Shown here: one piece after another, positions 9,489 to 63,483 of the stretch | Layout of the letters: the number at the start of each line of letters is the position of its first letter | How positions within the stretch are numbered: the stretch's first letter is position 1 | NCBI GenBank assembly: GCA_017450465.1 | Contig: JAFSUW010000007.1 | Coordinates: 6,247 to 70,246, forward strand | Reading direction: 5' to 3' | Length of the DNA: 64,000 nucleotides | DNA from: Clostridia bacterium | GTDB taxonomy: Bacteria > Bacillota > Clostridia > TANB77 > RGIG9151 | Program-made: the position numbers and the translations under genes | Notes under the pieces: model-generated | What the model saw: the letters and a program-made list of their open reading frames with translations, nothing else | Told to the model about the DNA's origin: nothing | Database searches by the model: none

Positions 9489-11297
9489 GTGGTTTTTGTG
9501 GAAGAAATAAATGATGTAGCTAGCTCTTTTTTGAAAGAGGTAGATAAAATTTTAAATAGTCGAAATACTGATATAGCAAGTGAATTAACAAAATTATTGG
9601 ACCAAATAGATAGTGACTTAAGTAAAATAAGTGCTGAAAAACGAGCTATAGTTAAGCAGTTAATTAATGAATCTATAGTTGAAATAAAAAGATATGTTAA
9701 TAAACAAGATGATAAAGTGCGTAATGGCATTCAAATAGCTGTAAAACGTAATTTATCTCAAGCAGAAGAACAAGAAGATATTGATGATCAAAAAAAACAT
9801 GTAAACAGTTTAGAAGTAAATATGACTAGTAGTAAAAATGATGGCAAGATTGATTCTGAACATGTAAGATCGTATATTCTAGAAGCTTTATATCATAAAA
9901 TAGATATAAATTTAGATCCAGGGGATATATCTTCAGCTACTGGAAGAGAAGATATTTTTGCTACACTAACTAGAGCAAGTAAAATAATAAGTGAAGCAGG
10001 AGATCTTGATGTTATAAAACTTGCTGTAAAAAGAAACATAAATCTTTTTTTAGAAAAATTAAATGAGTATTCTAGAGCATCAGATTCTAAATTAGAAGAA
10101 GCAATTAAAGATTTTTGTGATAAATTGAAGATGCAAGTAAAAGAAGCTGAAATTGATAGTTCAGAGCATAAAGAAGAACGAATAGATGGAGAAGAACCAA
10201 CAGGCAATCGTTTTGGATTAAAAAAAGGTGCCACTTCAGAATTATCTGTTGAAGTACCAGAGCAAGAAGAAGGTATGGAAGTTGGGAAAGAAACAATGGG
10301 AACAAGTGTTGAAGTGCCAGAACAAAGACCAGAAAATACAAGGGAGTTTTCAATAAAGGCAAGTGATATATTTCCAGGAGAGGAAACAGGAATTGATGTG
10401 CCAGAAGAAAGAGAAGGCACTACAGGAAAAAGATTAGATCCAATAGATATATTTCCAAGAGAGGAAGCAGGAGTTGAAGTACCAGAGGAAAGAGAAGGGA
10501 CAACAGGAAAAAGATTAGATCCAATAGATATATTTCCAAGAGAGGAAGCAGGAGTTGAAGTACCAGAGGAAAGAGAAGGGACAACAGGGAAAAGATTAGA
10601 TTCAAGTGATATATTTCCAGGAGAGGAAGCAGGAGTTGAAGTACCAGAGGAAAGAGAAGGTACAGCAGGAGAAACACTGGATGCAAGTAATAGAGTGGTT
10701 GAAGTACCTGAAGAGGGATATGGAATAGATGATAACAATTCTGAATTAGCACGTTTAAAAGCTGAATTAGAAAAAGAAAGAGTAGCAAGAGAAAACGCTG
10801 AACGAGAAAACGCCGAACTAAAAAAATCTAATGCAGAATTAAATTCTGAATTAGTAGTTAGAATAGACGAAAATGGAAGTTTAAGAGCAAGCTTAAAAGA
10901 AAGGAAAGAACAAATTGCTGGGTTAACTCATGATTTAGAAGTTATGAAAGGGGAAAATACTACATTAAGAGGTATAAATGATAACTTACGAGAAAAAAGT
11001 TCTAATTCACAAGAACAATATGAAAATGCAGCCACAATTGTTATAGGTCTTAGCGGTGAAGTGACAAGGTTAACGGATGAATTAAATGATGCTAAAAAAC
11101 AAATAGCTGGGACAAAAGCAGATGCTGAGAAACAAGTAGCTGAAGCAAAAGCTGAAACGAGAGCTACAGTTGCTAAGTCAAAAGAATTTTTTAACTTTGT
11201 AATGAAGTTAGTTAATGAGTTATCAAATTCAAAAAATCCATTACATAGAAAAACAGGTATAGAATTATCAGAAAAAATTGGTGAGTTTGAACATTAA
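9489..11297 (+). CDS. Hypothetical cytoplasmic acidic protein with 27-aa tandem repeats and a C-terminal coiled coil
   Basis: GTG start (9489 or 9498) after GAGGTGG. The unit EVPEEREGTTGKRLDPIDIFPREEAGV is repeated 4 times. The C-terminal region ELARLKAELEKERVARENAERENAELKKSNAELNSEL is coiled-coil-like. There is no signal peptide or TM segment. Confidence 0.6.
   Translation: MVFVEEINDVASSFLKEVDKILNSRNTDIASELTKLLDQIDSDLSKISAEKRAIVKQLINESIVEIKRYVNKQDDKVRNGIQIAVKRNLSQAEEQEDIDDQKKHVNSLEVNMTSSKNDGKIDSEHVRSYILEALYHKIDINLDPGDISSATGREDIFATLTRASKIISEAGDLDVIKLAVKRNINLFLEKLNEYSRASDSKLEEAIKDFCDKLKMQVKEAEIDSSEHKEERIDGEEPTGNRFGLKKGATSELSVEVPEQEEGMEVGKETMGTSVEVPEQRPENTREFSIKASDIFPGEETGIDVPEEREGTTGKRLDPIDIFPREEAGVEVPEEREGTTGKRLDPIDIFPREEAGVEVPEEREGTTGKRLDSSDIFPGEEAGVEVPEEREGTAGETLDASNRVVEVPEEGYGIDDNNSELARLKAELEKERVARENAERENAELKKSNAELNSELVVRIDENGSLRASLKERKEQIAGLTHDLEVMKGENTTLRGINDNLREKSSNSQEQYENAATIVIGLSGEVTRLTDELNDAKKQIAGTKADAEKQVAEAKAETRATVAKSKEFFNFVMKLVNELSNSKNPLHRKTGIELSEKIGEFEH
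10366..10720 (+). repeat. 81-nt near-perfect tandem repeat (about 4.3 copies) inside the 9489-11297 CDS
   Basis: The unit ACAACAGGAAAAAGATTAGATCCAATAGATATATTTCCAAGAGAGGAAGCAGGAGTTGAAGTACCAGAGGAAAGAGAAGGG repeats at 10420, 10500 and 10581, with partial copies flanking. This repeat explains the antisense ORFs 9893-10738 and 10420-10788. Confidence 0.85.
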
Positions 11298-16804: not shown

Positions 16805-16833
16805 TGACATTTTATTACATATGTTGTAATTTA
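16805..16833 (+). promoter_or_regulatory. Candidate sigma-A promoter (TTGACA-17-TAATTT with TG) for the Tad-like locus, embedded in a TTACA/TGTAA inverted-repeat cluster
   Basis: TTGACATTTTATTACATATGTTGTAATTT; the adjacent ATTACAtatgtTGTAAT palindrome is a possible operator. Confidence 0.3.
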
Positions 16834-16877
16834 TTTACAGGTAATATATTACAACATTTACAGAAGAAGGAGATAAA

Positions 16878-17759
16878 ATGCAAAAGAAAATTTTATTAGA
16901 TGAAGGAAGTACAGAGTTAGTAAATAGAGGTAATAAGCAGCAAATAATAGCAGTAGCAGGCACAGAAGGAGCTGGGAAAACTACAATTTTAACTAATTTA
17001 GTAGCACTGCTTGCAGAAAAATCTGTTGCTAAAATTTTAATACTAGATTTTGATACGTTAAATGGAAATGTAGGACAGTTTTTTAATGTATCAGCAGATA
17101 ATGTATTTGATTATACATTACCTGATAATAAAAATTCGTCAATAAATTATCTGGTAGATTTTATAGACAAAAATACATTTGATACAGGTATTTTATCAAA
17201 AGCCGCAATTAAGTATAAAAGATATGAAAATTTATCGATTGTTACTGGAAATAATTCAATACATGTTTGTAAAAGTGTATTAAATTCAGGTTATTATGAG
17301 AAAATAATTGATAAGGCAAAAGAACTATATGATTTTATTTTTATAGATACATCATCAAATATATTTTTAGATTCAACACAATTTGCTTTAAGTGTGTCAG
17401 ATAAAATATTATTTGTGACTGAACCTACTAAAATATGTGTTGATAGAACGCAGAAAATTTTTGAAGAAGTTTATACAGCGTGGAATATTGGAAAAGAAAA
17501 AATAGAACTTGTGTTAAATAAAGTGACTAAGGGTTCTATTGAAAAAGCTGTTATGAGAGAATTTTTTAGTGAATATAAAATTATATCTTTTATAAATTAT
17601 GATGAAAAATATGTAAGGCAGCTAAATATGGGGCGGCCGTATGTAATTGATAATGAACCGCTAGATTATGAAAACATGCTTGAAGAATTTGATTTTATAA
17701 AAAAGAAAAATTTTAAAGAGCGTTTGATGTCTGGTAGAGTATTCGATTTTTCAATATAA
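16878..17759 (+). CDS. ParA/MinD-family ATPase of the Tad locus (CpaE/TadZ-like, lacking a receiver domain)
   Basis: AVAGTEGAGKTTILTNL P-loop and a ParA-like fold. It is the first gene of the Tad-like cluster. Confidence 0.6.
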   Translation: MQKKILLDEGSTELVNRGNKQQIIAVAGTEGAGKTTILTNLVALLAEKSVAKILILDFDTLNGNVGQFFNVSADNVFDYTLPDNKNSSINYLVDFIDKNTFDTGILSKAAIKYKRYENLSIVTGNNSIHVCKSVLNSGYYEKIIDKAKELYDFIFIDTSSNIFLDSTQFALSVSDKILFVTEPTKICVDRTQKIFEEVYTAWNIGKEKIELVLNKVTKGSIEKAVMREFFSEYKIISFINYDEKYVRQLNMGRPYVIDNEPLDYENMLEEFDFIKKKNFKERLMSGRVFDFSI

Positions 17760-17770
17760 GGAGGAAAAGT

Positions 17771-19048
17771 ATGTTAGTTGATCCGTTAAAGTCAGTAAAT
17801 AGAGCCGTCAATGTAACACGACTAAACAATAGAACAGATAAAATAGTAAACGAAGTCGTAAGTTTTTTAATAGAAAATTATTCACAAGTAATAGGTAGTA
17901 ATGAATATGGCACTAAAAATAAGGTGTCAATTGAAAATATTATAAGAGAAAAGATTAATAAAGATTATAATTATTCAAATATTGATACAGAAGAGTTAAT
18001 AAAAATAATTATTGATAAAATTTTTGGCTATAACATTCTTCAAAAATATATAGATGACTTGAAAGTAAGCGATATTCGTGCTGTTAAGTGGAATAGTATC
18101 TATATAATGAAAGAGGGCAAATGGCTAAAAGTAAGTGACTCATTTGCAAATGAAACTGAATTTTATAATTTTGTGCGCTATTGTGTGATAAAAAACAATG
18201 GCAAAATTACATACGAACAGCCAATTGTTGTTGTATCAGATAAAGAAAATCATTTAAGAATAGAGGCGGGTATATCGCCTGTAAATATTGTTTCGCCAAG
18301 TTTGGTAGTGAGAATTCATAGGCCGGATAATAATGTAAGCTTAGAAAATCTTTACTATGATAAAAATATGATGAATAACGAGATGTATGAGTTCTTAAAA
18401 CAAGTGGTGTTGGCCGGTTGTAATGTGATAATAGCTGGTAAAGGTGGCTCTGGAAAAACAACGCTGCTTAGAGCAATATTAAACGATATTCCGGACACAG
18501 TTTCAATAACTTCAAATGAAGAGACCGCTGAACTTTATTCAAATCACGGGAATATGATACAACGCGAAATTGTAAAAAATCGCGCAACAAATAATATACT
18601 ACTTGAAGATTTAACAAGGCATTCATTAGTTATGAGTAATGACGCAATAGTAATAGGAGAGCTAAAGGGTAGTGAAGCAATGGCCTTTTTTGATGGTATA
18701 AGTACTGGTCATATAGGATATGCAACTGTCCATTCAGAAAGTGCAAATCTTGTTATAGATAGATTAGTTACGCTGATGAAACGCGATATTTTGGCGCAAC
18801 AATATACAGATAAGTACTTAAAAGATATTTTGGCACAGTCTATAGACGTTATAATTTATATGCGTAATTTTAAAATATATGAAATGTGTGCAGTTGAGTT
18901 TTCTTATGAAAAAGAAATTACTTATAAAAGATTGTTTGAATTTGTACCAGATTATATAGATGAAAATGGTGTACAAGGTAAGTTTTTTAAGAGGGAAGAG
19001 CCAACCGCAAAAATATTGAAAAAGATTAATTTAGTATCCAAATCATAA
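17771..19048 (+). CDS. cpaF: Tad/Flp pilus assembly ATPase CpaF/TadA (secretion ATPase superfamily)
   Basis: GKGGSGKTTLLRAIL Walker A; VIGELKGSEAMAFFDGISTGHIGYATVHSESANLVIDRL His-box region; 425 aa. Confidence 0.8.
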   Translation: MLVDPLKSVNRAVNVTRLNNRTDKIVNEVVSFLIENYSQVIGSNEYGTKNKVSIENIIREKINKDYNYSNIDTEELIKIIIDKIFGYNILQKYIDDLKVSDIRAVKWNSIYIMKEGKWLKVSDSFANETEFYNFVRYCVIKNNGKITYEQPIVVVSDKENHLRIEAGISPVNIVSPSLVVRIHRPDNNVSLENLYYDKNMMNNEMYEFLKQVVLAGCNVIIAGKGGSGKTTLLRAILNDIPDTVSITSNEETAELYSNHGNMIQREIVKNRATNNILLEDLTRHSLVMSNDAIVIGELKGSEAMAFFDGISTGHIGYATVHSESANLVIDRLVTLMKRDILAQQYTDKYLKDILAQSIDVIIYMRNFKIYEMCAVEFSYEKEITYKRLFEFVPDYIDENGVQGKFFKREEPTAKILKKINLVSKS

Positions 19049-19490
19049 AAGTAAGATATGTTGCAAATGTAACCCAAAGTAAATAAGGAATTTGTAAGTA
19101 TGCAGCGATTTTATTGGTTTTATAAAATTCGAAAATCATGTAAATAATTAGTAGCCATAAAAATAAAATCCAGATAAATGCAAATAAATAGTTTCTTAAA
19201 TTGAAGAAAATAAGACTCCAAAAGAAATTAACTAAAAGTTGTATAGCATATATAGTAAGCGATTTTTTAGAATCTTTACTATGTGATTTATAAATTATTG
19301 CACTACTGATACCCATGAGGATAAATAAAATTCCCCAAACAATAGGAAATATTGAAGCAGGAGGAGCAAGGGGAGGCCGATTTATAGTGCTATAAACTTC
19401 CATATTGTCTTTTGTGAGAATTGCAGATAATCCGCCGACTAAAAGTGCAATTATAATAGAAATTACGTATGGTTTAACTTTTTTCCACAT
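19026..19490 (-). CDS. tspO: TspO/MBR (tryptophan-rich sensory protein) family membrane protein
   Basis: Start MWKKVKPYV; PPLAPPASIFPIVWGILFILMG and Trp-rich helices (FWSLIFFNLRN ... YLLWVTFATYLTFMIWILN). The longer ORF to 19631 overlaps tRNA-Cys and is rejected. Its 3' end overlaps cpaF convergently by 23 nt. Confidence 0.7.
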   Translation of the reverse strand: MWKKVKPYVISIIIALLVGGLSAILTKDNMEVYSTINRPPLAPPASIFPIVWGILFILMGISSAIIYKSHSKDSKKSLTIYAIQLLVNFFWSLIFFNLRNYLFAFIWILFLWLLIIYMIFEFYKTNKIAAYLQIPYLLWVTFATYLTFMIWILN

Positions 19491-19561
19491 TTTTATCACC
19501 CAAGATAGTGTATGTAAGTGGTGATAAAAAAATGCAAAAAAAGAAAAAGTTATGAAAATAA

Positions 19562-19636
19562 CTTTTTCTTTGGAGGCGCCACCCGGATTTGAACCGGGGG
19601 ATAAGAGTTTTGCAGACTCGTGCCTTACCACTTGGC
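19562..19636 (-). tRNA. tRNA-Cys (anticodon GCA)
   Basis: Reverse complement GGCGCCATGGCCAAGTGGTAAGGCACGAGTCTGCAAAACTCTTATCCCCCGGTTCAAATCCGGGTGGCGCCTCCA. It has a cloverleaf with a CTGCAAA anticodon loop, is near-identical to Bacillus tRNA-Cys, and carries an encoded CCA. Confidence 0.9.
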
Positions 19637-19758
19637 CATGGCGCCATAAGATAAAATAAAATCTGTTACTTTAATAATATAGCACGGAATAAGAAAATAA
19701 TCAATAGGGAGTTAAAAATTAGTTATATAAATTAGAATTTTGTAGGGGAGGTATTTTC

Positions 19759-20646
19759 TTGTACATATTAATTTTTATGCTAAAAATAGCAATAATAGTA
19801 CTGTTTACATATATATTTGTTCAAAATATAAAAAAGAAAGACATAAAGCAGTATGTAGATAATGAATTTTTTGAAGAAGTACTAAATAAAAAGTATTTCG
19901 ATAAATTAAAACTAAACTTTATAAAGCTAGATTTGCCTTTTAACGTATATACAGTGGGCTTTTGCTTAAGTATAGGCATTTTGATAAGCATAACAGTGTA
20001 TGCTATCTCATTAGTTGTGTTTAAAATAAAAACTGTTGCACTAATTATAGCTTTGCCAGAAGTTTTTACAATGTTTTTTATAATTTTTATGCTTGCTACA
20101 AGAAAGCAGGAAAAACTTGAAACAGTTATGAATGATTTTTTTATTCAATTAAAAGGGGCATTAAAAGTAAATTCAGATATAACAGAAGGGTTAAAAAGGA
20201 TACAAGATAGTTGTATTTCACCGTTTAAGGAGTATATAAAGGTTTATTTAAACGAAGTAAGTTCAGGAGAACTTCCAGAAATCGCTTTATATAATTTAGC
20301 AAAAAAAGTGGACGTAGAAAGATTTACACTGTTTGTAAATAACCTAAGGTATTGTTCAGTTTATGGAGGAGATGTCGAAAATTTGACTCACGAAACGCAA
20401 AAAATGATATCTGATATATTAGTTCAAAAAAAGAAGCGAATAAAAGAAACTAAATCAATCTGCTTTGTTTTATATTGCTTAATATTTATAGATATTATCA
20501 TATATTTTAATTTTGCGACCAGTAATATAGAGTACCTAAACTTAATGCGAGATACTGCTACAGGGAACTTAATAGTTAATATGAATTTTATTTGTATATG
20601 GTTTGTACTATGGCTTTCAAGTGTTGTTAAGAAATTAGATTTTTAA
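19759..20646 (+). CDS. TadB-like pilus assembly membrane protein (T2SS-F domain)
   Basis: TTG start 7 nt after GGGGAGG. N-terminal TM segment, then a GspF-like cytoplasmic domain (QLKGALKVNSDITEGLKRIQDS ... GELPEIALYNLAKKV ... FVNNLRYCSVYGGDVENLTHETQKMISD) and C-terminal TM segments. Confidence 0.6.
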   Translation: MYILIFMLKIAIIVLFTYIFVQNIKKKDIKQYVDNEFFEEVLNKKYFDKLKLNFIKLDLPFNVYTVGFCLSIGILISITVYAISLVVFKIKTVALIIALPEVFTMFFIIFMLATRKQEKLETVMNDFFIQLKGALKVNSDITEGLKRIQDSCISPFKEYIKVYLNEVSSGELPEIALYNLAKKVDVERFTLFVNNLRYCSVYGGDVENLTHETQKMISDILVQKKKRIKETKSICFVLYCLIFIDIIIYFNFATSNIEYLNLMRDTATGNLIVNMNFICIWFVLWLSSVVKKLDF

Positions 20647-20658
20647 GGAGAGATCAAA

Positions 20659-21447
20659 TTGAAATTACTAAGGATAATATTTTTTGTATCACTTTTTGTA
20701 TTTGCTTATTTTATTGGTTACAAAATATACGCGAAAAATCAAGCAATAAAGCTTAAAGGGCGAAGGGTAAAAAAGAAAAATGTAAGCAACGTGTTACTAC
20801 AATTTAAGAAGTATATTCCAGATGTTGAAAATTTATATACATATATAGTCACAAAAATTATGTTATTTATTACTTTTTTGTATTTAGGAACTACCAATTA
20901 TGAGTCAATTTTTATGGGACTTGTTTTTAGTATACTTGGCTTTATGCTACCTGATTTTATGATAAAAATAATGAAAAATGCTGAAAAAAAGCAAGTACTA
21001 ATTGATTTATTAAATGTGGTTGAAAGTATAAAAATTCAGATGTCATCAAACATTCCACTTATTGTTGCACTAAAAAACATACCTTCTGTTTGTAAGAATA
21101 AAAAGCTAAAAAATGCTTTAGTAGATATGCAGCTAGAGTATGAATTAAGTGGGTATAGTTTGATATCTAGTTGTAAGAGCATGAGGAAAAAATTTAAATT
21201 TGTTGAGATAAATATGTTTTTATCTGCTATAGAACAACAGGTAAAGTACGGCAGGGCAGCTGAAACATATGAAAATTTAATTACTATATTAAAAGAAAAA
21301 TATATCGAGTACATAGAAAATAATACTCAAACCAAAATGTTATTTATGACACTTGGGATTGTCATAGTTTTGATAAATCTTGCAGTTATGGGGTGCTATC
21401 CAATAATTGTAGAGGTAAATCAAAATTTATCGACAATGTTAGGATAA
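20659..21447 (+). CDS. TadC-like pilus assembly membrane protein (T2SS-F domain)
   Basis: TTG start after AAGGAGAG. GspF-like region LLNVVESIKIQMSSNIPLIVALKNIPS ... FLSAIEQQVKYGRAAETYENL flanked by TM segments. Confidence 0.6.
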   Translation: MKLLRIIFFVSLFVFAYFIGYKIYAKNQAIKLKGRRVKKKNVSNVLLQFKKYIPDVENLYTYIVTKIMLFITFLYLGTTNYESIFMGLVFSILGFMLPDFMIKIMKNAEKKQVLIDLLNVVESIKIQMSSNIPLIVALKNIPSVCKNKKLKNALVDMQLEYELSGYSLISSCKSMRKKFKFVEINMFLSAIEQQVKYGRAAETYENLITILKEKYIEYIENNTQTKMLFMTLGIVIVLINLAVMGCYPIIVEVNQNLSTMLG

Positions 21448-21471
21448 GTATTTATTTGTGAAAAAACTTCC

Positions 21472-21595
21472 AGCGAAAGAAGGGACGGGGGTGTTTGACA
21501 CAAACAGGGTAAAACACCCCCGTCACATTGAGCTTATTATCCGCACTTTTTGCGGATAATAAGAGTGGAACACATGGTGTTCCACTACAAATTTA
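21472..21595 (+). repeat. Structured GC-rich three-hairpin element (family 1, copy 2) between the TadC-like gene and the pilin candidate
   Basis: GAAAGAAGGGACGGGGGTGTTT-GACACAAACAGGGT-AAAACACCCCCGTC, CATTGA, hairpin CTTATTATCCGCA/TGCGGATAATAAG, and hairpin AGTGGAACACATGGTGTTCCACT + ACAAATTT. Confidence 0.7.
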
Positions 21596-21711
21596 AGAAT
21601 AATTCATACTTTAGGTTAAAGTTCCTATAAAAAGGAAATCAAATTGGATATAATGGGACCGGCTTTATATATATAAATTAAATTATTACACAAAAGAAAG
21701 GATGATTTTTT

Positions 21712-21909
21712 ATGAAGAAATTTGCAAAGAAATTAGTAAAAGGAAACAGAGGAGCATCAGAAATTACACAATCATTAATGCTTGCAGGAGCATCAATAGC
21801 ACTTGTAATATTATCATTATTCCCAAACCTAAAAACATTTACTTCAACAGCATCAGGAATGCTTTCAAGTTGGTTTACTGAAAAAGCAGTTACTATGTTT
21901 GTAGAGTAA
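21712..21909 (+). CDS. Candidate Flp-type (type IVb) pilin, atypical
   Basis: 65 aa. Basic leader MKKFAKKLVKGNRG, then hydrophobic ASEITQSLMLAGASIALVILSLF. It sits between the TadC-like and CpaB genes. The canonical G/xxxxEY motif is not matched (E at +3, no Tyr). Confidence 0.4.
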   Translation: MKKFAKKLVKGNRGASEITQSLMLAGASIALVILSLFPNLKTFTSTASGMLSSWFTEKAVTMFVE

Positions 21910-21925
21910 TTTGAGGAGAACAGTT

Positions 21926-22582
21926 ATGAAAAAAATAAATATAATAATTTGTTCATTAGTTAGTTCGATACTTTTGTTCTTTATTTTAACTGGAGTTCAA
22001 AATAAAATTATAAATTATGAGCCAAAAGGCAATATTTTTATAGCTGTTCGTGAAATAAATGCCAATCAAAAAATTACTGATGAAATGGTAAAAAAAGTTT
22101 TAGCACCAATTAGCATGATTGATGGAAATGTAGTTAGTCAAAAATTACCTGCTGATATTTATGCAAGAGAAAATATTCACATAGGCCAAATTCTTTTGAA
22201 AAATACAGTGGGTGGTAAAGAGGAGCTAAAAATATTAGACAAGGAGCTTGGTTACGAAACAATTTCTATAAAATTAAAAGGACCTGAGAACGCAATATCT
22301 TATCAAATAAAGCAAGGCGATAAAGTTAATTTGTATTTCACAGGTAAATATGTTTCAGCACTTAGTCTTGGTTTGTATGATGCTGAAAACATAGAAGGGA
22401 AAATGTATACAGCAAAACTCCTTGAAAATCGTGAGATACTCGGGATTTACGATGCAAATGGTGTATCAAGTAATAATGAAAGTTTCGTAAAACCTGATAC
22501 AATCGTAATGAATGTAACCTATGATGAGGCAAAACTAATAAACAATTTGAGAAATCAGGGTACATTTGACATTACGGGTTAA
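21926..22582 (+). CDS. cpaB: Flp pilus assembly protein CpaB/RcpC-like (SAF-domain)
   Basis: ATG 21926 after GAGGAGA. N-terminal TM segment (INIIICSLVSSILLFFILTG), then IFIAVREINANQKITDEMVKKVLAP, resembling the CpaB VxxAxRDIxAGxxIT region. Confidence 0.5.
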   Translation: MKKINIIICSLVSSILLFFILTGVQNKIINYEPKGNIFIAVREINANQKITDEMVKKVLAPISMIDGNVVSQKLPADIYARENIHIGQILLKNTVGGKEELKILDKELGYETISIKLKGPENAISYQIKQGDKVNLYFTGKYVSALSLGLYDAENIEGKMYTAKLLENREILGIYDANGVSSNNESFVKPDTIVMNVTYDEAKLINNLRNQGTFDITG

Positions 22583-22656
22583 TTTTAATGGTAGACTGTA
22601 AATTATTATTTGTTGGGGGGATATCCCCCAACAAATAAAACTTAAAGGAGGCATTT

Positions 22657-23790
22657 ATGAAAAGAATAATATTGCTAGTAGTTTTTATATTACTATTCCC
22701 CAAAACAATATTAGCACATACAGATATAGAAAATCACTGGGCACAGGATTTTATAATAGATTTAACTGGTAGAGGTATAATAGAGGGCTATCCAGATAAT
22801 ACTTTTAGGCCAGATAATAATGTAACAAAGGCCGAATTTGTAACACTACTAATTAAATCGTTAGATATTCCGGTTAAAGATAGTGAAGGACATTGGGCAG
22901 AGGGCTTTGTGACTGCTGCAAAAAATAAAAATATAATAGATGATGTAGGAAATCTAGATGAAACTATCACTAGAGGCGATGTAATAAGGATGATAGCACG
23001 TTCTAGTGACGCTAAAATAGATGTAAATAATATAAAAACAATATTTGTAGACACATTAAATTTAGATGAAGAATTACTAAAAAGCATAGAGATGTTATAT
23101 AATACTGGAATTTTAAGCGGATTTCCAGATAAAACGGTAAGAACTGCTTTTAATTTGACACGAGCAGAGGCGTGTACGTTTATTTGTAAACTGTTAGAGA
23201 ACAAAGAAAAGCTAGATACTTATAATTATGTAAAAAATTATTATGATGAAACAGTGTTTATAAGTAAAGAAGAATTGCCGCATAAATTAGAACTATGGAA
23301 GAATAGTCAAGGAGATAGTAGTGTAAAAACCATTATTAATTCTGTAGATGTGTTTGAATTTAATGCAGATACGAAGTATAGTGCTATTTTTGAAGAAATA
23401 AAAAATAGTGAGAACCAATATTTTGAGTATAGAAGAAAGAAGGGCACGGATAACTTTGTAATTGCTATAGAATTTGAAACAAAGAATGATAGTAAATACG
23501 AAACTGTTACGGGATATGATTACTTAAATGTATCTTTTCCAGAGGAAGATATAAAGATTTTAGATAGCTTTGACACAGATGAGATAGAAAATGCCAAAAA
23601 GAATATACCTTACGATGGTAAAAAGTTAAAGCAAGAAGAATCGCATAAGACAGTTGCGTTTTATATTGTAGGAAATAAACCAAGTGAAGTTATAAAACTT
23701 ACTCGTAATATAACTACTATGTATGATGAAGTGAACAAAGAATATGTTGATACAAATGTGTATAGCTCGTTAGTAATAGGTAATCTTTAA
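22657..23790 (+). CDS. SLH-domain cell-surface protein
   Basis: Signal peptide (ILLVVFILLFPKTILA), then three SLH repeats (HWAQDFIIDLTGRGIIEGYPDNTFRPDNNVTKAEFVTLLIKSL; HWAEGFVTAAKNKNII...; SGFPDKTVRTAFNLTRAEACTFICKLL). Confidence 0.75.
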   Translation: MKRIILLVVFILLFPKTILAHTDIENHWAQDFIIDLTGRGIIEGYPDNTFRPDNNVTKAEFVTLLIKSLDIPVKDSEGHWAEGFVTAAKNKNIIDDVGNLDETITRGDVIRMIARSSDAKIDVNNIKTIFVDTLNLDEELLKSIEMLYNTGILSGFPDKTVRTAFNLTRAEACTFICKLLENKEKLDTYNYVKNYYDETVFISKEELPHKLELWKNSQGDSSVKTIINSVDVFEFNADTKYSAIFEEIKNSENQYFEYRRKKGTDNFVIAIEFETKNDSKYETVTGYDYLNVSFPEEDIKILDSFDTDEIENAKKNIPYDGKKLKQEESHKTVAFYIVGNKPSEVIKLTRNITTMYDEVNKEYVDTNVYSSLVIGNL

Positions 23791-23816
23791 CAATTTGTAG
23801 AGAAAGGACTGATATA

Positions 23817-26800
23817 ATGAGAAGAATTATATCTCTTCTTTGTGTTTGCTGTACTCTTTTTTTAAGTGTATCAGAAGCATATATAAAAAGAGAAATAGAT
23901 TTAACTAAAGAAGAAATAATACCATTTAGTTTTTCTTCAAGTAAAGCAAAGATTGAAGAATTAATAGATATAAAAAAGTATAAAAATGTGAAAGTTTTAG
24001 ATACATATGTTGATAATGGTGAAATTGAAACGGATTTAATTGAAAATTTTATAGAAGTAAATCTAGACGATGGAGAATTTTTTTCTGGGAATAAGATTGT
24101 TACAAAAAATGAAACGCTATATTTGGAAGAGGAGCTAACGGATAAGCAAAGAAGGACAGTATTAGTGACGCCTGATAACGAAGTGGCAAAAATAATTGAT
24201 GTGGGCGGAGATTTTTCTAGTGGTAATGTATCAAATGGAGATATAGAACTAAAAGTAAAAACTGATGCAGTTGGAAGTATAATCGAAAGTGATACAGAAA
24301 CAGAAGTAAAGCGGGTAAACGTAGAAATCCCATCTACAAATAAAAATAGAACTGTGTATAGTGAGTATATAACTTTGCCTAATACTTTGGTTAATGCCGA
24401 AGTTTTAAGTGTAGCAGATGGTACGGCTAAAGTGTATAAATCTAAAAATAGTTTTAGGATATTATTTGATAATGGTACGCCTAATTTAACTGAAACAAAA
24501 AAAACAGATGGTTATACGTATTATTGGGCAGATAGAGCATTGGATGGGAGTTTCAAAAAAGAATATCCAAATTCAGTGTATAAAACAGATAAAAAAGATT
24601 TTTACGGTGAAGGTGAGTATATAGAAGGTAAAAAATCACTTGATGAGCTTATGTATAATGTAAGTTTTGAACCCTCTTGGAAAGACTATGCGGGTGTAAA
24701 TATAAATGGCGTTAAATATATGTATATATTTGATGACACAAAAGGCATACCCGATGTTAAAGATAGAATTTTATTAGATGAGGATAATATAACATTAGAT
24801 GGCGAGTGGTGTAATTCAGAAAAAATAAAGATAGAATTTACTGATAGTGAAATTAAATTTATACCTGAAGGAAAACTTTATAGCATGGGCGATATTGTAA
24901 AAAACACATATGGTTGGGGAGAAACTTACCCTAATCGTGATGATGAGAGTAAAGAAAGTTTTTTTAATACACTAACGGGTAAATTGGAAACGTATGTAAA
25001 GCATTTTAAGTTTTTCTATGGCCCTAAAGAGAAAAACACATTTGGTGGCTTTTTCACTTATCCGTATACTGCTCAAGTAGAGTATGAATATAAAAAACCA
25101 ATAACTGTTTATTCAGGGTATGTAACATATAGTTATGAGGAAGAAGAAAAGCAAAATGGCTATATGTACAATGGATGGGTAAAAATAAGTTATGATACTA
25201 CAAAATCAGTAAATGATTATCCACCAACGGCACCATATAATATACACTATAATGAAAAAGTTGTTTGGAATGCTGGTACAGACGATTATACTCCACAAGA
25301 TAGATTAAGATACGAAATAGAAGTTGAAACAGGTAATACGTGGCAACATCTTGATGAAACGGATTTTGGTGAAACAGAGTATGAATATGAAAATGGACAA
25401 GACCTAAAGTTTAGGGTTCGTACAGTAGATGAATTAAACCAAGTATCCGATTGGGGCTATAGTAATGAGGACGAGATAGAGCTTATTGGTAGTGTTACAC
25501 CGAACAGAATTTATAGCGGAGATAAAATAGATATAGAAGCACTCACTAAATCTTTAACAGATATAGTAGGAGTTCATGCTTCTTGTGAAGAGCTAGGTAT
25601 AGACGCATCATTAAACAAAGTTTCTGAATCGAAAGTTAATTTCAATGAACTTGCTTTTGAACTTTGGTGCAAATATAATACCTCAAAAGATTCAACAATA
25701 ATGGTGTATAACAGTATTCTTGCTAAAAATAAGGGTGATAAAATAGTTTCTTCATATTACACAAAGGGTAATTACACAAAGGAATATATGCTATATACAG
25801 ATTTGCCAGAAATATTTCCATTTGATGTGTCTGGTACAGTAGTAGTGCCAAATCAAAATTATGTAGATAATTCTATAGATATTTTTAAGGCCAATAATAA
25901 GTGGTGGTGGATTCGCGGTAGAAGTGTTTTGAGTATGAAGAACAAAAATACAAATTCAACAGAAGACTTTATCTATTTTATGAATGATACTGCTTCAGTT
26001 TCTGGTAGCTCAACTAGCTTAAAACTTAAGCCATATATAAAGGTTAATACCTTTGAATATACGAATAATAAGCCCAAAACAAAAAAAGTATACATAGATC
26101 CAAGTATAGCAGGTGATCCAATTTCTATACTTTGGAACACTAAAGATGGATTAACCAATATAAATATATATTTTGGAACAGAGTTGGTATATACATATGA
26201 AGTGCCTTTTTCTAGTATTGAGAATAACATAGAAGGATTTGCAAAATACAATATTGGGAAAACTGCATACCAGGCAAACTTGACAACTGACGGCTTTGCT
26301 ATACCAAGTAGTGGTAATTATTATGAATGGACGCAAATGAAAAAGATGGCAAATTTACTTGAAACCACATGGCTTGGTTATAAATTTACTGAGGATTCTA
26401 AGGGAATAGCACAAGATACTTTAGTGGCATATAACAATTTAGGAATAAGAAATGTAAATAGGATGTTATTTTTGGATAAAGATATAAGTATTTCTACATT
26501 AAAAAAATATTTGAATTTAATAAAAAGCACAAATATTTCAATAGACGAGGATACTAATGAGGGAGTTTTCGGAAGTCAAGTTCAAGAAAGAGAATGTAAT
26601 TTTACACTACTTAATGTTGATACGGCTAAAAACGTAGAAAGTGGAATTTATTTTATAACTCTTACCGCATATGATGATAGCGGCAATGAAAAGGTGGTTA
26701 GATTACCAATAGAAGTGCTAGAAAAAGAGGAAGAAATAGAAGATGAAGTTGCTACTCATACGACAAGTTTAGGCAGATTTTTTTATGATAAGTCAGGTAA

Positions 26801-27359
26801 CGGTTATGTAGAAGAGTTATCAAAGCCATATAAAAATCCTGATGGCGAAGGATTTATTTCTGCCGGGGAAACTTTATGTTTGGTATTAGAATTAAAAAAT
26901 GCAGAATTTATAGAAGTTAATTTTAATGGTAATGAAAGCATAAAAACTTATGATTCACTTACAAAACGTTTTATAGAAGATGAGCCGAAAAGACGTGGTG
27001 AGGATATAGGTAATATATCAGAAAACTATGAATTTCCTAGAACTATTTATCCAACGAGAGTAGATAGTGATGGTACAAGTAGATTTGTGTTTAGTTATGT
27101 TGTTCCTTATAGGACTAAGCAAAATTTAGAATCCTGGGCGACACTTCGCGAAAAATCTGGCGATGCAGAAACAATAGATAAATCAAAATTACTTAATAGG
27201 ATTTTTGAACCATACGAATTAGAAATAAAAATAAACGGAGAAGAGGATAATAAAAAGGTATACAGTTTTGATGTATTTGAACGCTGGGACACTATACTAA
27301 ACAGAAATGTAAGTAATTTAATATCAAATTATAATACGAAGTGGAGACTAAAATTATGA
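23817..27359 (+). CDS. Large secreted protein (1180 aa) with at least one fibronectin-III-like module; function unknown
   Basis: Signal peptide MRRIISLLCVCCTLFLSVSEA. FN3-like segment PPTAPYNIHYNEKVVWNAGTDDYTPQDRLRYEIEVETGNTWQHL ... LKFRVRTVDELNQVSDWGYS. No LPXTG motif. Its stop overlaps the next start in an ATGA junction. Confidence 0.6.
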   Translation: MRRIISLLCVCCTLFLSVSEAYIKREIDLTKEEIIPFSFSSSKAKIEELIDIKKYKNVKVLDTYVDNGEIETDLIENFIEVNLDDGEFFSGNKIVTKNETLYLEEELTDKQRRTVLVTPDNEVAKIIDVGGDFSSGNVSNGDIELKVKTDAVGSIIESDTETEVKRVNVEIPSTNKNRTVYSEYITLPNTLVNAEVLSVADGTAKVYKSKNSFRILFDNGTPNLTETKKTDGYTYYWADRALDGSFKKEYPNSVYKTDKKDFYGEGEYIEGKKSLDELMYNVSFEPSWKDYAGVNINGVKYMYIFDDTKGIPDVKDRILLDEDNITLDGEWCNSEKIKIEFTDSEIKFIPEGKLYSMGDIVKNTYGWGETYPNRDDESKESFFNTLTGKLETYVKHFKFFYGPKEKNTFGGFFTYPYTAQVEYEYKKPITVYSGYVTYSYEEEEKQNGYMYNGWVKISYDTTKSVNDYPPTAPYNIHYNEKVVWNAGTDDYTPQDRLRYEIEVETGNTWQHLDETDFGETEYEYENGQDLKFRVRTVDELNQVSDWGYSNEDEIELIGSVTPNRIYSGDKIDIEALTKSLTDIVGVHASCEELGIDASLNKVSESKVNFNELAFELWCKYNTSKDSTIMVYNSILAKNKGDKIVSSYYTKGNYTKEYMLYTDLPEIFPFDVSGTVVVPNQNYVDNSIDIFKANNKWWWIRGRSVLSMKNKNTNSTEDFIYFMNDTASVSGSSTSLKLKPYIKVNTFEYTNNKPKTKKVYIDPSIAGDPISILWNTKDGLTNINIYFGTELVYTYEVPFSSIENNIEGFAKYNIGKTAYQANLTTDGFAIPSSGNYYEWTQMKKMANLLETTWLGYKFTEDSKGIAQDTLVAYNNLGIRNVNRMLFLDKDISISTLKKYLNLIKSTNISIDEDTNEGVFGSQVQERECNFTLLNVDTAKNVESGIYFITLTAYDDSGNEKVVRLPIEVLEKEEEIEDEVATHTTSLGRFFYDKSGNGYVEELSKPYKNPDGEGFISAGETLCLVLELKNAEFIEVNFNGNESIKTYDSLTKRFIEDEPKRRGEDIGNISENYEFPRTIYPTRVDSDGTSRFVFSYVVPYRTKQNLESWATLREKSGDAETIDKSKLLNRIFEPYELEIKINGEEDNKKVYSFDVFERWDTILNRNVSNLISNYNTKWRLKL

Positions 27360-27856
27360 TTAAGAATAAAAATCGAGGGAGTATAGTTTTTATAGTGGTG
27401 TTAGTTATCTTACTTCTTATGGTACTGTTTACTTTTTTTACAGCGATTGTTTTTAAGCATAACGTTAATTTAGTACTGCATAATTTGAAAAATGATTTAT
27501 TCCTAATTAGTAGAAATTCAATATTTTCTATAGAAAAAGACATGATGGCTGAAGATGTGGATTTAATCAACTATGTAGACTTAAAGGAGTATATAAAAGA
27601 CGAGATAAGGTTTGCATGGGGATTAGATAGAAATTTAAAGAATGGTAAAGGTGTCATAAAAAGTGCAAAAATAGAGGACCTAGAAATATTAGAAGTAGGC
27701 GATAAAGATAAGACAAATAATAAAACAGTTAATTGTTTAACAGTTCATTTAATATTAGGTGTAAAAGTAAAACCAATAATTTTAGAAAAAGCGTTTGATG
27801 ACATTTTTTATTTCAAATTTCATGAAGACTTAAAACTAGATAAATTAGATGCATAG
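27356..27856 (+). CDS. Pseudopilin/TadE-like candidate (N-terminal hydrophobic helix after a basic leader), atypical
   Basis: MIKNKNRG|SIVFIVVLVILLLMVLFTFF. ATG 27356 after GGAG, with a 4-nt overlap with the upstream stop. No Glu at +5. Confidence 0.35.
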   Translation: MIKNKNRGSIVFIVVLVILLLMVLFTFFTAIVFKHNVNLVLHNLKNDLFLISRNSIFSIEKDMMAEDVDLINYVDLKEYIKDEIRFAWGLDRNLKNGKGVIKSAKIEDLEILEVGDKDKTNNKTVNCLTVHLILGVKVKPIILEKAFDDIFYFKFHEDLKLDKLDA

Positions 27857-27867
27857 GAGGAAGATGT

Positions 27868-28287
27868 ATGAAATTTAATAAAAATTCAGGCAACACGATG
27901 ATAGCTACGCCAATTGTACTGATTGTTGTATTTTTCATATTTATAAGTTTTGCAGTAATGTTTATACGTTTGATGGAGCCGTTTGTTATATATGAAAAGA
28001 TGTCATCATCATCTCTTAAATACATAGTTACAATGGAGGAATATGGCTATTTAACGGATAAAGAAAGAAGTAAATTAAAATCCGAATTAGTGGGCAAGGG
28101 CTTAAAAGAAGAAAATATAACAATACGTGCAACTAGTGAACTACAAGAATATGGGGACCCTATATCACTAATAATTAATTATAAACATAGCATGAAATTA
28201 CCAAGCTTTGAGGATTCAATAATACCTAAAATAAAGGAGCAGGAAATAAAGTTAAAGGTTTTTAAGCACAGCTTTAGTAAGAGGTAA
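27868..28287 (+). CDS. Pseudopilin/TadE-like candidate, atypical
   Basis: MKFNKNSG|NTMIATPIVLIVVFFIFISFAVMF following a GGAGGAAG RBS; 139 aa. Confidence 0.35.
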   Translation: MKFNKNSGNTMIATPIVLIVVFFIFISFAVMFIRLMEPFVIYEKMSSSSLKYIVTMEEYGYLTDKERSKLKSELVGKGLKEENITIRATSELQEYGDPISLIINYKHSMKLPSFEDSIIPKIKEQEIKLKVFKHSFSKR

Positions 28288-28321
28288 GGAATGAGCAGTA
28301 ATGAGGAGAAAGGTAAGACGT

Positions 28322-28948
28322 ATGCAGAAGATGTATAAAGAAGCATTAGAAAAAAGCAAAATAACTCAAAAGAGCAATAATAATATTCAATATGATGTAG
28401 GATATGACGTTAACGGAAAACCTTATATTGAAATAAAAAACGATATATTAGATGGAGTTCCTGAAAAAGAATGGGTAAAAAAAGTAAAAGATGTTTTGAA
28501 AGAAAAGTTTCCAAATGGGATTGATATGGAATTTTTTAATATCTCAATAACAAAACAAAGCAGAAATGAATATACAAATTCAAAGTATTCAAACAAATTA
28601 CGAAGAAATAACACTAATCTATTTGCAGACAAGATGAGAATGGCAAATAATGCAGATGAAATTGTACAAAATGCGTATAATGTTAGAAACGAGGATATTA
28701 AGCATTTAAGGAAAGATGATATCGTAAGCTTTAATAGAAGCAATATTGATGTAAAAGTCGGGAACCAAATGTATCAAGTAGATGTTGTTACAGGAATAAC
28801 TAAAAATAATAATGAAATATTCTATGATATTGTTAATATAAAAAAGAAGGTGCTCCAGAATACGACTAGTGTAAATAATGCACAGCGCAAGACAGGAACA
28901 TCTTCTATCAATAATATACAACAGAATAACAAATCTGTCAATACATAG
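28322..28948 (+). CDS. Hypothetical soluble Asn/Lys-rich protein
   Basis: ATG 28322 after GAGGAGAAAGG. No TM segment. Fragments of its 3' end recur downstream at 29060-29225. Confidence 0.4.
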   Translation: MQKMYKEALEKSKITQKSNNNIQYDVGYDVNGKPYIEIKNDILDGVPEKEWVKKVKDVLKEKFPNGIDMEFFNISITKQSRNEYTNSKYSNKLRRNNTNLFADKMRMANNADEIVQNAYNVRNEDIKHLRKDDIVSFNRSNIDVKVGNQMYQVDVVTGITKNNNEIFYDIVNIKKKVLQNTTSVNNAQRKTGTSSINNIQQNNKSVNT

Positions 28949-61713: not shown

Positions 61714-62922
61714 CTGGCCAATTATATTTATACAGCCGTAGATAATACGGGCAAAAGAATAAAAAATTCTATAGAAGCTTCAAGCAAAGAAGCTGTTATG
61801 TCGCTTTTAAAATCAAGAGGAATATATGTTATTTCTGTTGATGAAGAAACAATATTTAATAAAGACTTAAATATTGGCGGCAATGGTGAAATAAAACCAA
61901 AACAGCTTGCACTTTTTGCAAAACAGTTTTCAATGTTACTTAAAGCCGGAATATCAATTGCAGAATCACTTGAAATATTAAGAGATCAATTAGAAGACAA
62001 AAAAATGGTTAAAGTTGTAAGTGATATAAGTGATGAAGTGCAAAAAGGTGCGCCACTATCTGTAGCAATGCGTAGTACAGAAAAGTTACCTGCATTATTT
62101 GTAAACACAGTAGAAGCAGGTGAAGGTGGCGGTTTTCTAGATGAAGTAATGGTAAGTATGACAGATTATTATGAAAAAACCACTAAACTTTCTTCAAAAG
62201 TAAAAAGTGCAATGATATATCCATCACTAGTTTTGATAGTAACGGTTGCGGTAAGCTACATTCTTGTAACCAAAGTTGTTCCAACATTCGCTGAAATGTT
62301 TGCTTCTATGGATTTGGAGTTGCCGTTTTTAACAAGAATGTTAATGGCAGTTGGTGATTTCTTTAATTCTTGGTGGCTATTATTACTAGTATTAATTATA
62401 GCTGCTGTGGTTGGAATTAGATATTACATAAAAACTCCAATGGGTAGATATAATAAAGATTTACTGTTTTTAAAAATACCTCTAATAAAAGCATTGGTAT
62501 TAAAATCAGTAATATCTAGATTTGCAAGAACATTAGGAATTCTATTAAAAACAGGCGTTCCGATGATTACAGCAATAGAATATTCATCGGCGGTATTAAA
62601 TAATGCCGTAATGGAAAAAGCAATGCAGACAGTAAAAGCAGATGTAACAAGTGGTAGTAACTTGTCAACACCAATACAAAAAGTAGAGCTTTTCCCTAAG
62701 ATGGTAGTTTCTATGATAAAGATTGGTGAGGAAACAGGTGCTGTTGATGAAATGATGGACAAATGCGCAGACTTCTACGATGAAGAAGTAGAAGTATTAT
62801 CTGGGCGTGTTACATCTCTTATCGAACCATTAATCATTTTGATATTAGCAGGAATAGTTGGTACTATAGTAATGGCAATTGTTTTACCAATGTTCGGAAT
62901 GTTTGAAGGATTAGATATGTAA
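61714..62922 (+). CDS. pilC: Type IV pilus assembly platform protein PilC (GspF family); translation start non-canonical or uncertain
   Basis: The in-frame region upstream of the first ATG (61798) encodes a PilC-type N-terminus (ANYIYTAVDNTGKRIKNSIEASSKEAVMSLLKSRG) directly after a GGGGTGAG RBS. Only ATT (61711) or CTG (61714) are available as starts, and an in-frame TGA lies at 61705. Two T2SS-F domains follow. Confidence 0.6.
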   Translation: MANYIYTAVDNTGKRIKNSIEASSKEAVMSLLKSRGIYVISVDEETIFNKDLNIGGNGEIKPKQLALFAKQFSMLLKAGISIAESLEILRDQLEDKKMVKVVSDISDEVQKGAPLSVAMRSTEKLPALFVNTVEAGEGGGFLDEVMVSMTDYYEKTTKLSSKVKSAMIYPSLVLIVTVAVSYILVTKVVPTFAEMFASMDLELPFLTRMLMAVGDFFNSWWLLLLVLIIAAVVGIRYYIKTPMGRYNKDLLFLKIPLIKALVLKSVISRFARTLGILLKTGVPMITAIEYSSAVLNNAVMEKAMQTVKADVTSGSNLSTPIQKVELFPKMVVSMIKIGEETGAVDEMMDKCADFYDEEVEVLSGRVTSLIEPLIILILAGIVGTIVMAIVLPMFGMFEGLDM

Positions 62923-62967
62923 TAGGAATTTTGAATATAAAACATTATAAAGTAAGGAGGTAAGAAT

Positions 62968-63447
62968 ATGGAGCTAAAAGGTAAAAAAGGATTTACGTTA
63001 ATTGAACTAATTATCGTAATAGCAATTCTTGGTATAATTGCATTGATTGCAGTACCAAATTTGGCAGGTATCCGTCAAAGAGCACAAGTAAGTGCAGATA
63101 AACGTACTGCTGAACAAATAGGAAAAGCTGTAAGAATATGGGCAACAGATATTGATGCAGCAGCCAGAACAATACCAACAGCAATAACAGAATATGATGC
63201 TGGTGGTACTCTTTCAGGATTGTGTCCAGCATATATCTCTAGTGGATATAAAGCAAAATCATATCCAGGAGGTGAAGGCGTATATTATGTTTCGTCTTAT
63301 GGTAGTGGAGTAAACAATGCAGACCAAAAAATATGGGTTGGAATTGGGCTAGGTGGTGACGCGCCAGCAAAACCTGCAGCAATTGGTTCCACTACTACTG
63401 TAACATATGATGGATCTGCAGCAGCTTGGGCGTATGCAGAAAAATAA
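62968..63447 (+). CDS. pilA: Type IVa major pilin (prepilin, cleavage site G|FTLIE)
   Basis: MELKGKKG|FTLIELIIVIAILGIIALIAVPNLAGIRQRAQVS; AAGGAGG RBS; C-terminal AAWAYAEK. Confidence 0.85.
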   Translation: MELKGKKGFTLIELIIVIAILGIIALIAVPNLAGIRQRAQVSADKRTAEQIGKAVRIWATDIDAAARTIPTAITEYDAGGTLSGLCPAYISSGYKAKSYPGGEGVYYVSSYGSGVNNADQKIWVGIGLGGDAPAKPAAIGSTTTVTYDGSAAAWAYAEK

Positions 63448-63483
63448 TAAAAGGAAGTAAATAGAATTTAAGGAGGAATAAAA

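Follow-up and report, generated by a model that had tools for sequence, protein, structure and literature searches.

The 64,000-nucleotide stretch of DNA analyzed here, referred to below as the window, comes from an uncultured ruminant-gut Clostridia bacterium with a G+C content of ~30%. Located at positions 16878-28948 is a gene cluster, not distinct in composition, that probably encodes a divergent Tad-type (type IVc) filament machine, in which a secreted SLH-domain protein would tie the apparatus to the cell wall and a large secreted protein would dock on the minor pilins. We have high confidence that the locus is a Tad-type filament system, and moderate to high confidence that its conserved parts include the SLH and large proteins. 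The latter assignment follows from the fixed position of the two genes, their tight or overlapping junctions, and the extreme specificity of the C-terminal domain (CTD) of the large protein.

The locus contains eleven co-directional open reading frames, all of which are intact and have the boundaries given in the first-pass annotation. They are listed below together with the two minus-strand genes that split them and the spacer ahead of the pilin gene.

16878..17759, plus strand: CpaE/TadZ-like ATPase of the ParA/MinD family, 293 aa (AAA_31, 43.8 bits; CbiA, 36.3 bits)
17771..19048, plus strand: CpaF/TadA-type secretion ATPase, 425 aa (Pfam T2SSE, 86.9 bits)
19026..19490, minus strand: TspO/MBR membrane protein, likely start at ATG 19490 (Pfam TspO_MBR, 154 bits)
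19571..19645, minus strand: tRNA-Cys (GCA), from ARAGORN (Rfam tRNA, 64.6 bits)
19759..20646, plus strand: TadB-like platform protein, 295 aa, TTG start (T2SSF, 24.1 bits; cut-off 25.2)
20659..21447, plus strand: TadC-like second platform protein, 262 aa, TTG start (T2SSF, weak at 13.3 bits; cut-off 25.2)
21448..21711, no strand: spacer upstream of the pilin gene, 264 bp, with three strong hairpins
21712..21909, plus strand: Flp1-like small pilin candidate, 65 aa; leader MKKFAKKLVKGNRG, then ASEITQS and a hydrophobic helix
21926..22582, plus strand: CpaB/RcpC-like protein, 218 aa, with an N-terminal membrane anchor and SAF and RcpC domains
22657..23790, plus strand: SLH-domain secreted protein, 377 aa (Pfam SLH, 85 bits)
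23817..27359, plus strand: large secreted multi-domain protein, 1180 aa, almost all-beta, no Pfam match
27356..27856, plus strand: pseudopilin A (psA), 166 aa; leader MIKNKNRG/S, hydrophobic helix, globular domain
27868..28287, plus strand: pseudopilin B (psB), 139 aa; leader MKFNKNSG/NTMIATP; divergent member of the DUF4320 family
28301..28948, plus strand: LPD3-domain protein, 215 aa (LPD3, 28.8 bits; cut-off 27)

The first-pass annotation had described the locus as Tad-type rather than as a Com or PilBC system, and that description stands. The top match of CpaF among solved structures is CpaF itself (E 1e-22), followed by VirB11 and archaeal GspE/FlaI, and the protein is 66-72% identical to its orthologues in the first of three groups of related loci described below. 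Its matches to TIGR03819 (107.9 bits) and to VirB11 fall under the cut-offs. The window CpaB scores 22.5 bits on RcpC (cut-off 28.8) and 26 bits on TIGR03177, with a weak match to SAF. The faint signals from TadC and CpaB are rescued because other members of their families do match: in a family-level scan, 14 of 22 TadC-like proteins matched T2SSF (best E 1.8e-6), and 19 of 22 CpaB-like proteins matched RcpC (best E 1.8e-8), with 13 matching SAF. For TadB, precomputed T2SSF matches with E <= 1e-5 exist for the orthologues of L007 and L035. The pair of T2SSF platform paralogues, TadB and TadC, is thus recognized at the family level only, and the T2SS-F and CpaB assignments made earlier hold for the families but not for the window proteins taken singly, which score under the cut-offs. 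No Pfam family matched the 65-, 1180-, 166-, and 139-aa products of the window. The TTG start of TadB at position 19759, which had been remarked on earlier, is supported by a good ribosome-binding site, AGGGGAGG, 7 nt upstream. For CpaB, the ATG at 21926 is used by gene callers, and a TTG at 21911 is an alternative. Genes for the secretin RcpA, TadD, and RcpB are absent from the locus and from its relatives, as expected in monoderm Tad systems (PMC6668835, PMC6916266).

The gene order TadC, pilin, CpaB, SLH protein, large protein, psA, and psB recurs in over 30 loci of uncultured Clostridia from gut and rumen. Continuation of the pilus locus into the SLH and 1180-aa genes, as first proposed from the window alone, is thereby supported: in every related locus (L003-L008, L011-L021, and L024-L035) the two genes are found after cpaB and ahead of those for the pseudopilins, and the order holds even where the large proteins have only a C-terminal domain of ~190 aa in common. 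Gaps here measure 4-26 bp, and the stop/start junction with psA either overlaps or is at most 7 bp. In the window, the ATGA overlap of the large gene with the psA gene at 27356-27359 was called correctly in the first-pass annotation, and psA therefore starts at ATG 27356 (166 aa) rather than at GTG 27341.

Three contigs with homologues of the 1180-aa protein encode, in order, CpaE (412-444 aa), CpaF, TadB, TadC, a 64-71-aa protein, CpaB, an SLH protein, and proteins of ~1030-1190, ~160, and ~140 aa; they continue with a protein of ~250 aa (p250) and then an RCC1/WD40_RLD protein of ~1000 aa. A scan of species-representative genomes provided 23 more loci, all in metagenome-assembled genomes (MAGs) of gut and rumen Clostridia (human Hadza, sheep, deer, and rabbit). 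On the basis of tblastn searches, the related loci sort into three groups.

Group 1: large protein of ~1030-1200 aa; full synteny, with the p250 and RCC1 genes present
Group 2: large protein of ~1520-1570 aa; no p250 or RCC1
Group 3: large protein of ~545-560 aa (X); TadC, small protein, CpaB, SLH protein, X, psA, and psB kept

In the group-3 genomes (L034, 3219-10390; L024-L033) the operon from TadC through psB stands alone, and in L034 two Gate-domain (PF07670) genes precede it. CpaE, CpaF, and TadB are not encoded within ~5 kb upstream, so that the ATPase and the first platform gene must lie elsewhere in these genomes. The p250 proteins of the group-1 relatives are 61-67% identical across loci and coiled-coil-like, with no significant Pfam match. 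Their genes and those for the RCC1/WD40_RLD proteins directly follow the pseudopilin genes in L003 (14675-18545), L005 (10735-14600), L007 (14564-18270), and L035 (12084-15896). These two proteins may be further parts of the system; no homologue of either is found anywhere in the window.

Both the SLH protein and the 1180-aa protein begin with ordinary Sec signal peptides. In the SLH protein the SLH region spans residues ~22-190 and comprises two scored stretches. Alignment of the family reveals SLH motifs conserved after the signal peptide and a variable, group-specific C-terminal half. With its Sec signal peptide and tandem SLH motifs, the protein would fit the cell-wall-anchored SLH class. 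The 1180-aa protein is distinctly modular, with a variable N-terminal body of ~980 aa and a conserved CTD formed by residues 978-1180 (nt 26748-27356). There are 48 clusters of full-length homologues, 30-51% identical and all from uncultured Clostridia. The AlphaFold (AF2) model, built from the 48-sequence alignment, is mostly all-beta and multi-domain (pLDDT 81.7), its body being a chain of adhesin-like beta-sandwich domains. Foldseek searches with this model returned only beta-sandwich arrays with low TM-scores, namely the MG domains of complement and alpha-2-macroglobulin, SiiE, and the modular S. sanguinis PilC pilin. The fibronectin type III repeats ascribed to this protein in the first-pass annotation are not borne out, in that Pfam gave no fn3 match at E <= 1; what the AlphaFold model displays is a string of beta-sandwich domains. 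The viral structure library BFVD contributed FN3-rich proteins, again with low TM-scores, so that the structure matches as a whole comprise FN3-, MG-, and Ig-like multi-domain proteins; a phage origin for the large protein was considered and set aside, given that these were generic multi-beta-sandwich matches only.

In the CTD model, which is a confident one (pLDDT 91.9, pTM 0.87), the ~200 aa fold into a beta-sandwich that carries a helical insert. In profile-profile comparisons with hhalign, the large proteins of groups 1 and 3 share their last ~190 residues only (E 1e-39). A CTD profile searched against 1.84 billion representative proteins yielded about 50 matches (clusters). In the longer of these (~540-2130 aa) the CTD ends no more than ~25 residues from the C-terminus, and many of the shorter matches look like fragments. 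Large proteins encoded in the loci measure ~545 to ~1570 aa, and those in the library up to 2130 aa. It could be argued that the pilus is an ordinary one whose operon happens to include genes for two unconnected proteins of the surface or S-layer, the SLH protein and the large protein. In keeping with such an arrangement, neither protein has a pilin-type leader or homology to known Tad components, and the giant proteins encoded near related plasmid clusters, described below, are unrelated in sequence to the window large protein. Even where the large proteins share the CTD alone, however, both genes stay inside the locus, after cpaB and before the pseudopilin genes, the stop/start overlap with psA is conserved, and the CTD is found almost nowhere else; we regard independence of the two proteins as unlikely.

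The Sec signal peptides also bear on the earlier suggestion that the locus encodes a secretion apparatus for S-layer-anchored cargo. Since the SLH and large proteins carry them, such an apparatus is not needed for passage across the membrane; passage through the wall is the part of the suggestion that may survive. The corresponding model is a short pseudopilus acting as a piston, as in type II secretion systems (T2SS), rather than as an adhesive fiber, which pushes or guides the Sec-exported large protein through the wall and S-layer while the SLH protein holds it. The tight coupling of the large gene to the pseudopilin genes would suit this model, as would the lack of a Flp motif and of Glu+5 in the pilin-like proteins and the presence of SLH/giant-protein pairs beside Tad-like clusters in three lineages. 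Moreover, the C-terminal half of the SLH protein varies between groups in step with the body of the large protein. We nonetheless judge the model improbable: both proteins are already equipped for Sec export, and the small pilins form a very abundant, Flp1_like family, as would be anticipated for a major fiber subunit. Sequence cannot tell a piston from a pilus, and we know of no T2SS-like function in monoderms.

All three families of pilin-like proteins have a basic leader ending in an invariant glycine, followed by a hydrophobic helix. Across 17 loci the invariant residues of the small pilin are G14, E17, Q20, G26, P38, W54, and F63. The first-pass annotation had stated that the 65-aa candidate lacks the G/xxxxEY motif, and indeed a different one takes its place: [KR]G, A or G, S or A, E, I or V, T, and Q, which reads [KR]G(A/G)SE(I/V)TQS in groups 1 and 2 and RGSEILQ in group 3. 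The glutamate thus falls at +2 or +3, and there is no tyrosine. No Flp_Fap match and no sequence match to the solved Flp pilins was obtained for the small pilin; its size and position fit a Flp pilin. The Pfam family Flp1_like is matched by eight of 17 members of the small-protein family (best E 4.3e-6) but not by the window member. This family contains at least 503 clusters, all annotated as hypothetical.

The pseudopilins had been described as TadE-like and lacking Glu+5. The second point is correct, for in the family alignments the leader [KR]G is followed by S or N and then by the hydrophobic helix. As to the first, neither psA nor psB matches TadE, and TadF is matched only at E 0.04-0.7; both have class-III-like leaders. 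The psA family has an invariant G8 across 19 loci, a [KRN]G(S/N) leader, and no consistent Pfam match (TadF only at E 0.56). Its N-terminal 31 columns are related to psB (hhalign probability 85%), so the leader and helix are common to both families. Members of the psB family carry the leader [KR]G(S/N)xx(L/I)xTP and an invariant C-terminal SKR. DUF4320 is matched by 16 of 22 of them (best E 9.5e-6) but not by the window member, and the 444 clusters of the family are uniformly annotated as hypothetical. Given that these oddities are conserved across the families, they are properties of a coherent subfamily rather than noise.

Absence of a TadV/CpaA peptidase gene, also reported in the first-pass annotation, was confirmed by a combination of motif scanning, listing of transmembrane proteins, and Pfam searches. 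No A24-type peptidase was found in the 64-kb window, where the GxGD[x][KR] motif occurs in no frame. The polytopic membrane proteins examined were TspO, TadB, TadC, an M50 peptidase, a TMEM164-like protein, PilC, and an unassigned 307-aa protein without the A24 motif, none of which is an A24 enzyme; two short minus-strand polytopic reading frames inside plus-strand ones fall outside this check. In the MAG and metagenome loci L001-L035 the motif is likewise absent, except for one chance match inside a large protein. The p250 protein was entertained as the missing peptidase and then discarded, since it carries no A24 motif, appears from its sequence to be a soluble coiled-coil protein, and does not occur in the window. 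There are precedents for a distant peptidase gene, in that tadV was treated as separately encodable in the initial Tad model (PMC6668835) and the prepilin peptidase of Bifidobacterium breve sits at another locus (PMC6916266). The missing Glu+5 and the missing linked peptidase, both listed as unusual in the first-pass annotation, are normal for this clostridial subfamily.

The window also carries canonical pilins with G/FTLIE leaders, which suggests that an A24 enzyme is encoded elsewhere in the genome. These belong to a type IVa pilus cluster (window 61798-63987 and L009 8315-20185) that consists of PilC (T2SSF, 201.6 bits) followed by six paralogous pilin genes, with KKG/FTLIE in the leaders. 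The first two pilins share nearly identical N-terminal regions of ~65 residues, and two others have degenerate leaders lacking G/FTLIE. PilM-like and large minor-pilin-like genes follow. There are no adjacent PilB, PilT, or PilD genes, and no A24 gene occurs over 10 kb downstream.

Several features are peculiar to the window genome. Its closest relative is L035, which has the same upstream POR gene and whose large protein is 51% identical to that of the window. In L035, CpaE is 417 aa long, cpaF and tadB are 14 bp apart, the TadC-flp spacer is 47 bp, and the p250 and RCC1 genes are present. Because L035 differs in these points, the loss of the CpaE N-terminus, the insertion of TspO and tRNA-Cys, the 264-bp spacer, and the LPD3 gene are derived in the window lineage. 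The minus-strand TspO and tRNA-Cys genes do split the locus, as had been noted, but this interruption and the receiver-less CpaE, like the long spacer, belong to this genome and are not seen in L035. The CpaE proteins of the relatives are 412-459 aa long, and in tblastn alignments the window protein matches them only from residue ~144 onward; what it lacks is an N-terminal receiver-like domain of ~125-145 aa. The orthologue in L003 has a weak Response_reg match over residues 13-99. No relative has TspO at this place between cpaF and tadB. Together with tRNA-Cys it constitutes a lineage-specific insertion, and it is not part of the pilus system. The TspO and cpaF genes converge, with the 3' end of the former overlapping that of the latter by 23 nt.

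The spacer between tadC and the pilin gene, about 47-95 bp in relatives, here contains three near-perfect hairpins (RNA fold -75.7 kcal/mol, z -6.3). A known RNA or riboswitch was sought and dismissed, with no Rfam match and no repetition of the hairpin sequence in the window. The spacer could be an inserted element or a processing or stability signal for the pilin mRNA. The LPD3 gene lies 13 bp after the psB gene, in the place occupied in relatives by the p250 and RCC1/WD40_RLD genes. Elsewhere in the window, a 602-aa open reading frame without a Pfam match follows rpoC at 9489-11297, in the region of most extreme skew (GC 0.41 and AT 0.36 at 10-11 kb).

LPD3 is a domain of the polyvalent proteins of phages and conjugative elements, and its occurrence at the end of the window locus is one of several observations that would accord with a mobile-element origin. 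Thin pili serve cell-cell contact for DNA transfer in some conjugative plasmids, and the window system might by analogy be a mating or aggregation apparatus, with the SLH-anchored giants as aggregation factors. The best plasmid matches to CpaF are found on Vallitalea pronyensis pVpro (NZ_CP058650; 36.7%) and Alkaliphilus sp. pB6464 (NZ_CP058558; 33.8%). These closest matches in the plasmid collection adjoin PrgI-family, ATP-binding (by product name only), and M23 peptidase genes, or topoisomerase IA and SSB genes, and TIGR03819, on which CpaF scores under the cut-off, describes a conjugal-transfer-associated TadA. Set against this, the locus is chromosomal in this clade, with housekeeping genes on its flanks (the POR operon, glmU-like, der, plsY, and gpsA). 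Furthermore, no relaxase, coupling protein, or VirB4 is encoded within ~10 kb in any MAG locus, and both plasmids are typed as non-mobilizable. A mating apparatus is thus the most doubtful of the readings considered here.

For the Tad-type filament machine that we favor, the following scheme may be envisioned. The CpaE/TadZ-like ATPase would position the machine, and CpaF would power the TadB/TadC platform. The platform would polymerize the 65-aa Flp1-like pilin once its [KR]G leader had been removed by a peptidase encoded elsewhere, with psA and psB priming and capping the fiber. The SLH protein, together with the CpaB/RcpC-like protein in the membrane, would link the machine to the secondary cell-wall polymer; where two-membrane bacteria have a secretin complex, this pair would serve as a collar or anchor at the wall. 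Finally, the large Sec-exported protein would dock via its CTD on the translationally coupled pseudopilins and expose its lineage-variable body, thereby behaving as a tip adhesin of the PilY1 or TadG type. Tad tips are known to be minor-pilin complexes that expose variable domains (PMC12075869). Further support comes from the independent Tad-like clusters on the Vallitalea and Alkaliphilus plasmids, after which SLH/giant-protein pairs are likewise encoded.

A number of observations weigh against this scheme. The window TadB, TadC, and CpaB fall under both the Pfam and the NCBIfam cut-offs, and the window small pilin, psA, and psB themselves match no pilin family; the Flp motif and Glu+5 are missing from the pilin-like proteins. 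No prepilin peptidase was found in the window, in the 10 kb beyond it, or in the ~10 kb around L001-L035, and the processing of the pilins is therefore unproven. In the group-3 loci, CpaE, CpaF, and TadB are not adjacent. With its CpaE having lost the N-terminal domain and its operon interrupted, the window locus is of uncertain activity. Docking of the CTD on the pseudopilins is proposed from gene order and nothing else. The CTD has no structural match to PilY1, to pilins, or to any fold in the PDB (E<1e-3), and the plasmid giant proteins lack it.

The studied monoderm Tad machines are minimal and without RcpC, and how such filaments cross and are anchored in the wall is an open question (Pelicic's review, PMC6916266). 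More tentatively, CpaB and the SLH protein could represent the first recognized module dedicated to wall anchoring or crossing in a monoderm type IV filament machine, and the CTD proteins a new class of exchangeable tip adhesins, with the same logic recurring on clostridial plasmids; we hold this wider proposal to be possible rather than probable. The first-pass annotation had called the arrangement undescribed. No published description was found, but analogous loci, unremarked, are present on annotated plasmids of cultivated Clostridia. In the present subfamily RcpC is retained, and an SLH protein and a modular large protein are added whose genes hold a constant order relative to those of the minor pilins; it thus offers concrete candidates for the wall anchor and the tip adhesin. 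From this locus one might learn how single-membrane bacteria anchor or arm such pili. Its carriers are abundant uncultured gut and rumen Clostridia, and annotation would be improved for protein families in which from 444 to at least 503 clusters are presently all hypothetical. The cultivable Vallitalea and Alkaliphilus strains, with their analogous plasmid loci, make the idea testable.

In comparison with the Tad/Flp systems (type IVc) of Aggregatibacter, Caulobacter, and B. breve, the window locus has in common CpaF/TadA, two platform paralogues, a TadZ/CpaE-like ATPase, a very small major pilin (~50 aa when mature), two candidate minor pilins, and an RcpC/CpaB-like protein. As in B. breve, the peptidase may be encoded elsewhere (PMC6916266). 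The differences lie in the pilin, which has its glutamate at +2/+3 instead of the G/xxxxEY motif, in psA, which has no such glutamate, in the missing secretin, TadD, and RcpB, and in the receiver-less window CpaE. RcpC, by contrast, is kept here and not in the studied monoderm Tad systems, and the SLH protein and the CTD-bearing large protein are inserted between the cpaB and minor pilin genes. Flp1_like (PF16982) and DUF4320 (PF14208) are presumably marks of firmicute Tad-like loci; the small pilin and psB connect to these two Pfam families at the family level, whereas the window proteins themselves lie under detection.

The plasmids pVpro and pB6464 share with the window a receiver-less CpaE-like ATPase, CpaF, two platform-like proteins, a SAF/RcpC protein, small [KR]G pilins without Glu+5, and pseudopilins. 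Farther downstream an SLH protein is paired with a secreted hypothetical protein of 988-1904 aa, and such a pair occurs once or twice. On the plasmids the pilin genes precede that for the SAF protein, the SLH/giant pairs lie downstream and are partly separated by other genes, and the context is plasmid-transfer-like, whereas the window locus is chromosomal. In pVpro (L037, 36000-62000) the Tad-like cluster is followed, twice in succession, by an SLH protein paired with a secreted protein of 1659-1904 aa, and the C-terminal ~40 residues of a 997-aa and a 1659-aa protein are almost identical.

With PilY1/PilC1 of type IVa pili and TadG/KilN of Tad/Kil systems, the locus shares a large protein encoded with minor pilins and the combination of a conserved module, presumed to dock at the tip, with a lineage-variable exposed body. 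PilY1, like the large protein, has a Sec-type signal peptide. The window protein differs from PilY1 in having no beta-propeller or vWA domain, only beta-sandwich domains in the models, and from TadG/KilN in not being a pilin. The resemblance is one of logic and not of demonstrated homology. The FlaF/FlaG proteins of the archaellum are an S-layer-binding stator. The domain in the window protein is SLH and the envelope differs, and it is the concept alone that is shared: a dedicated secreted protein holds a type IV filament machine to the surface layer.

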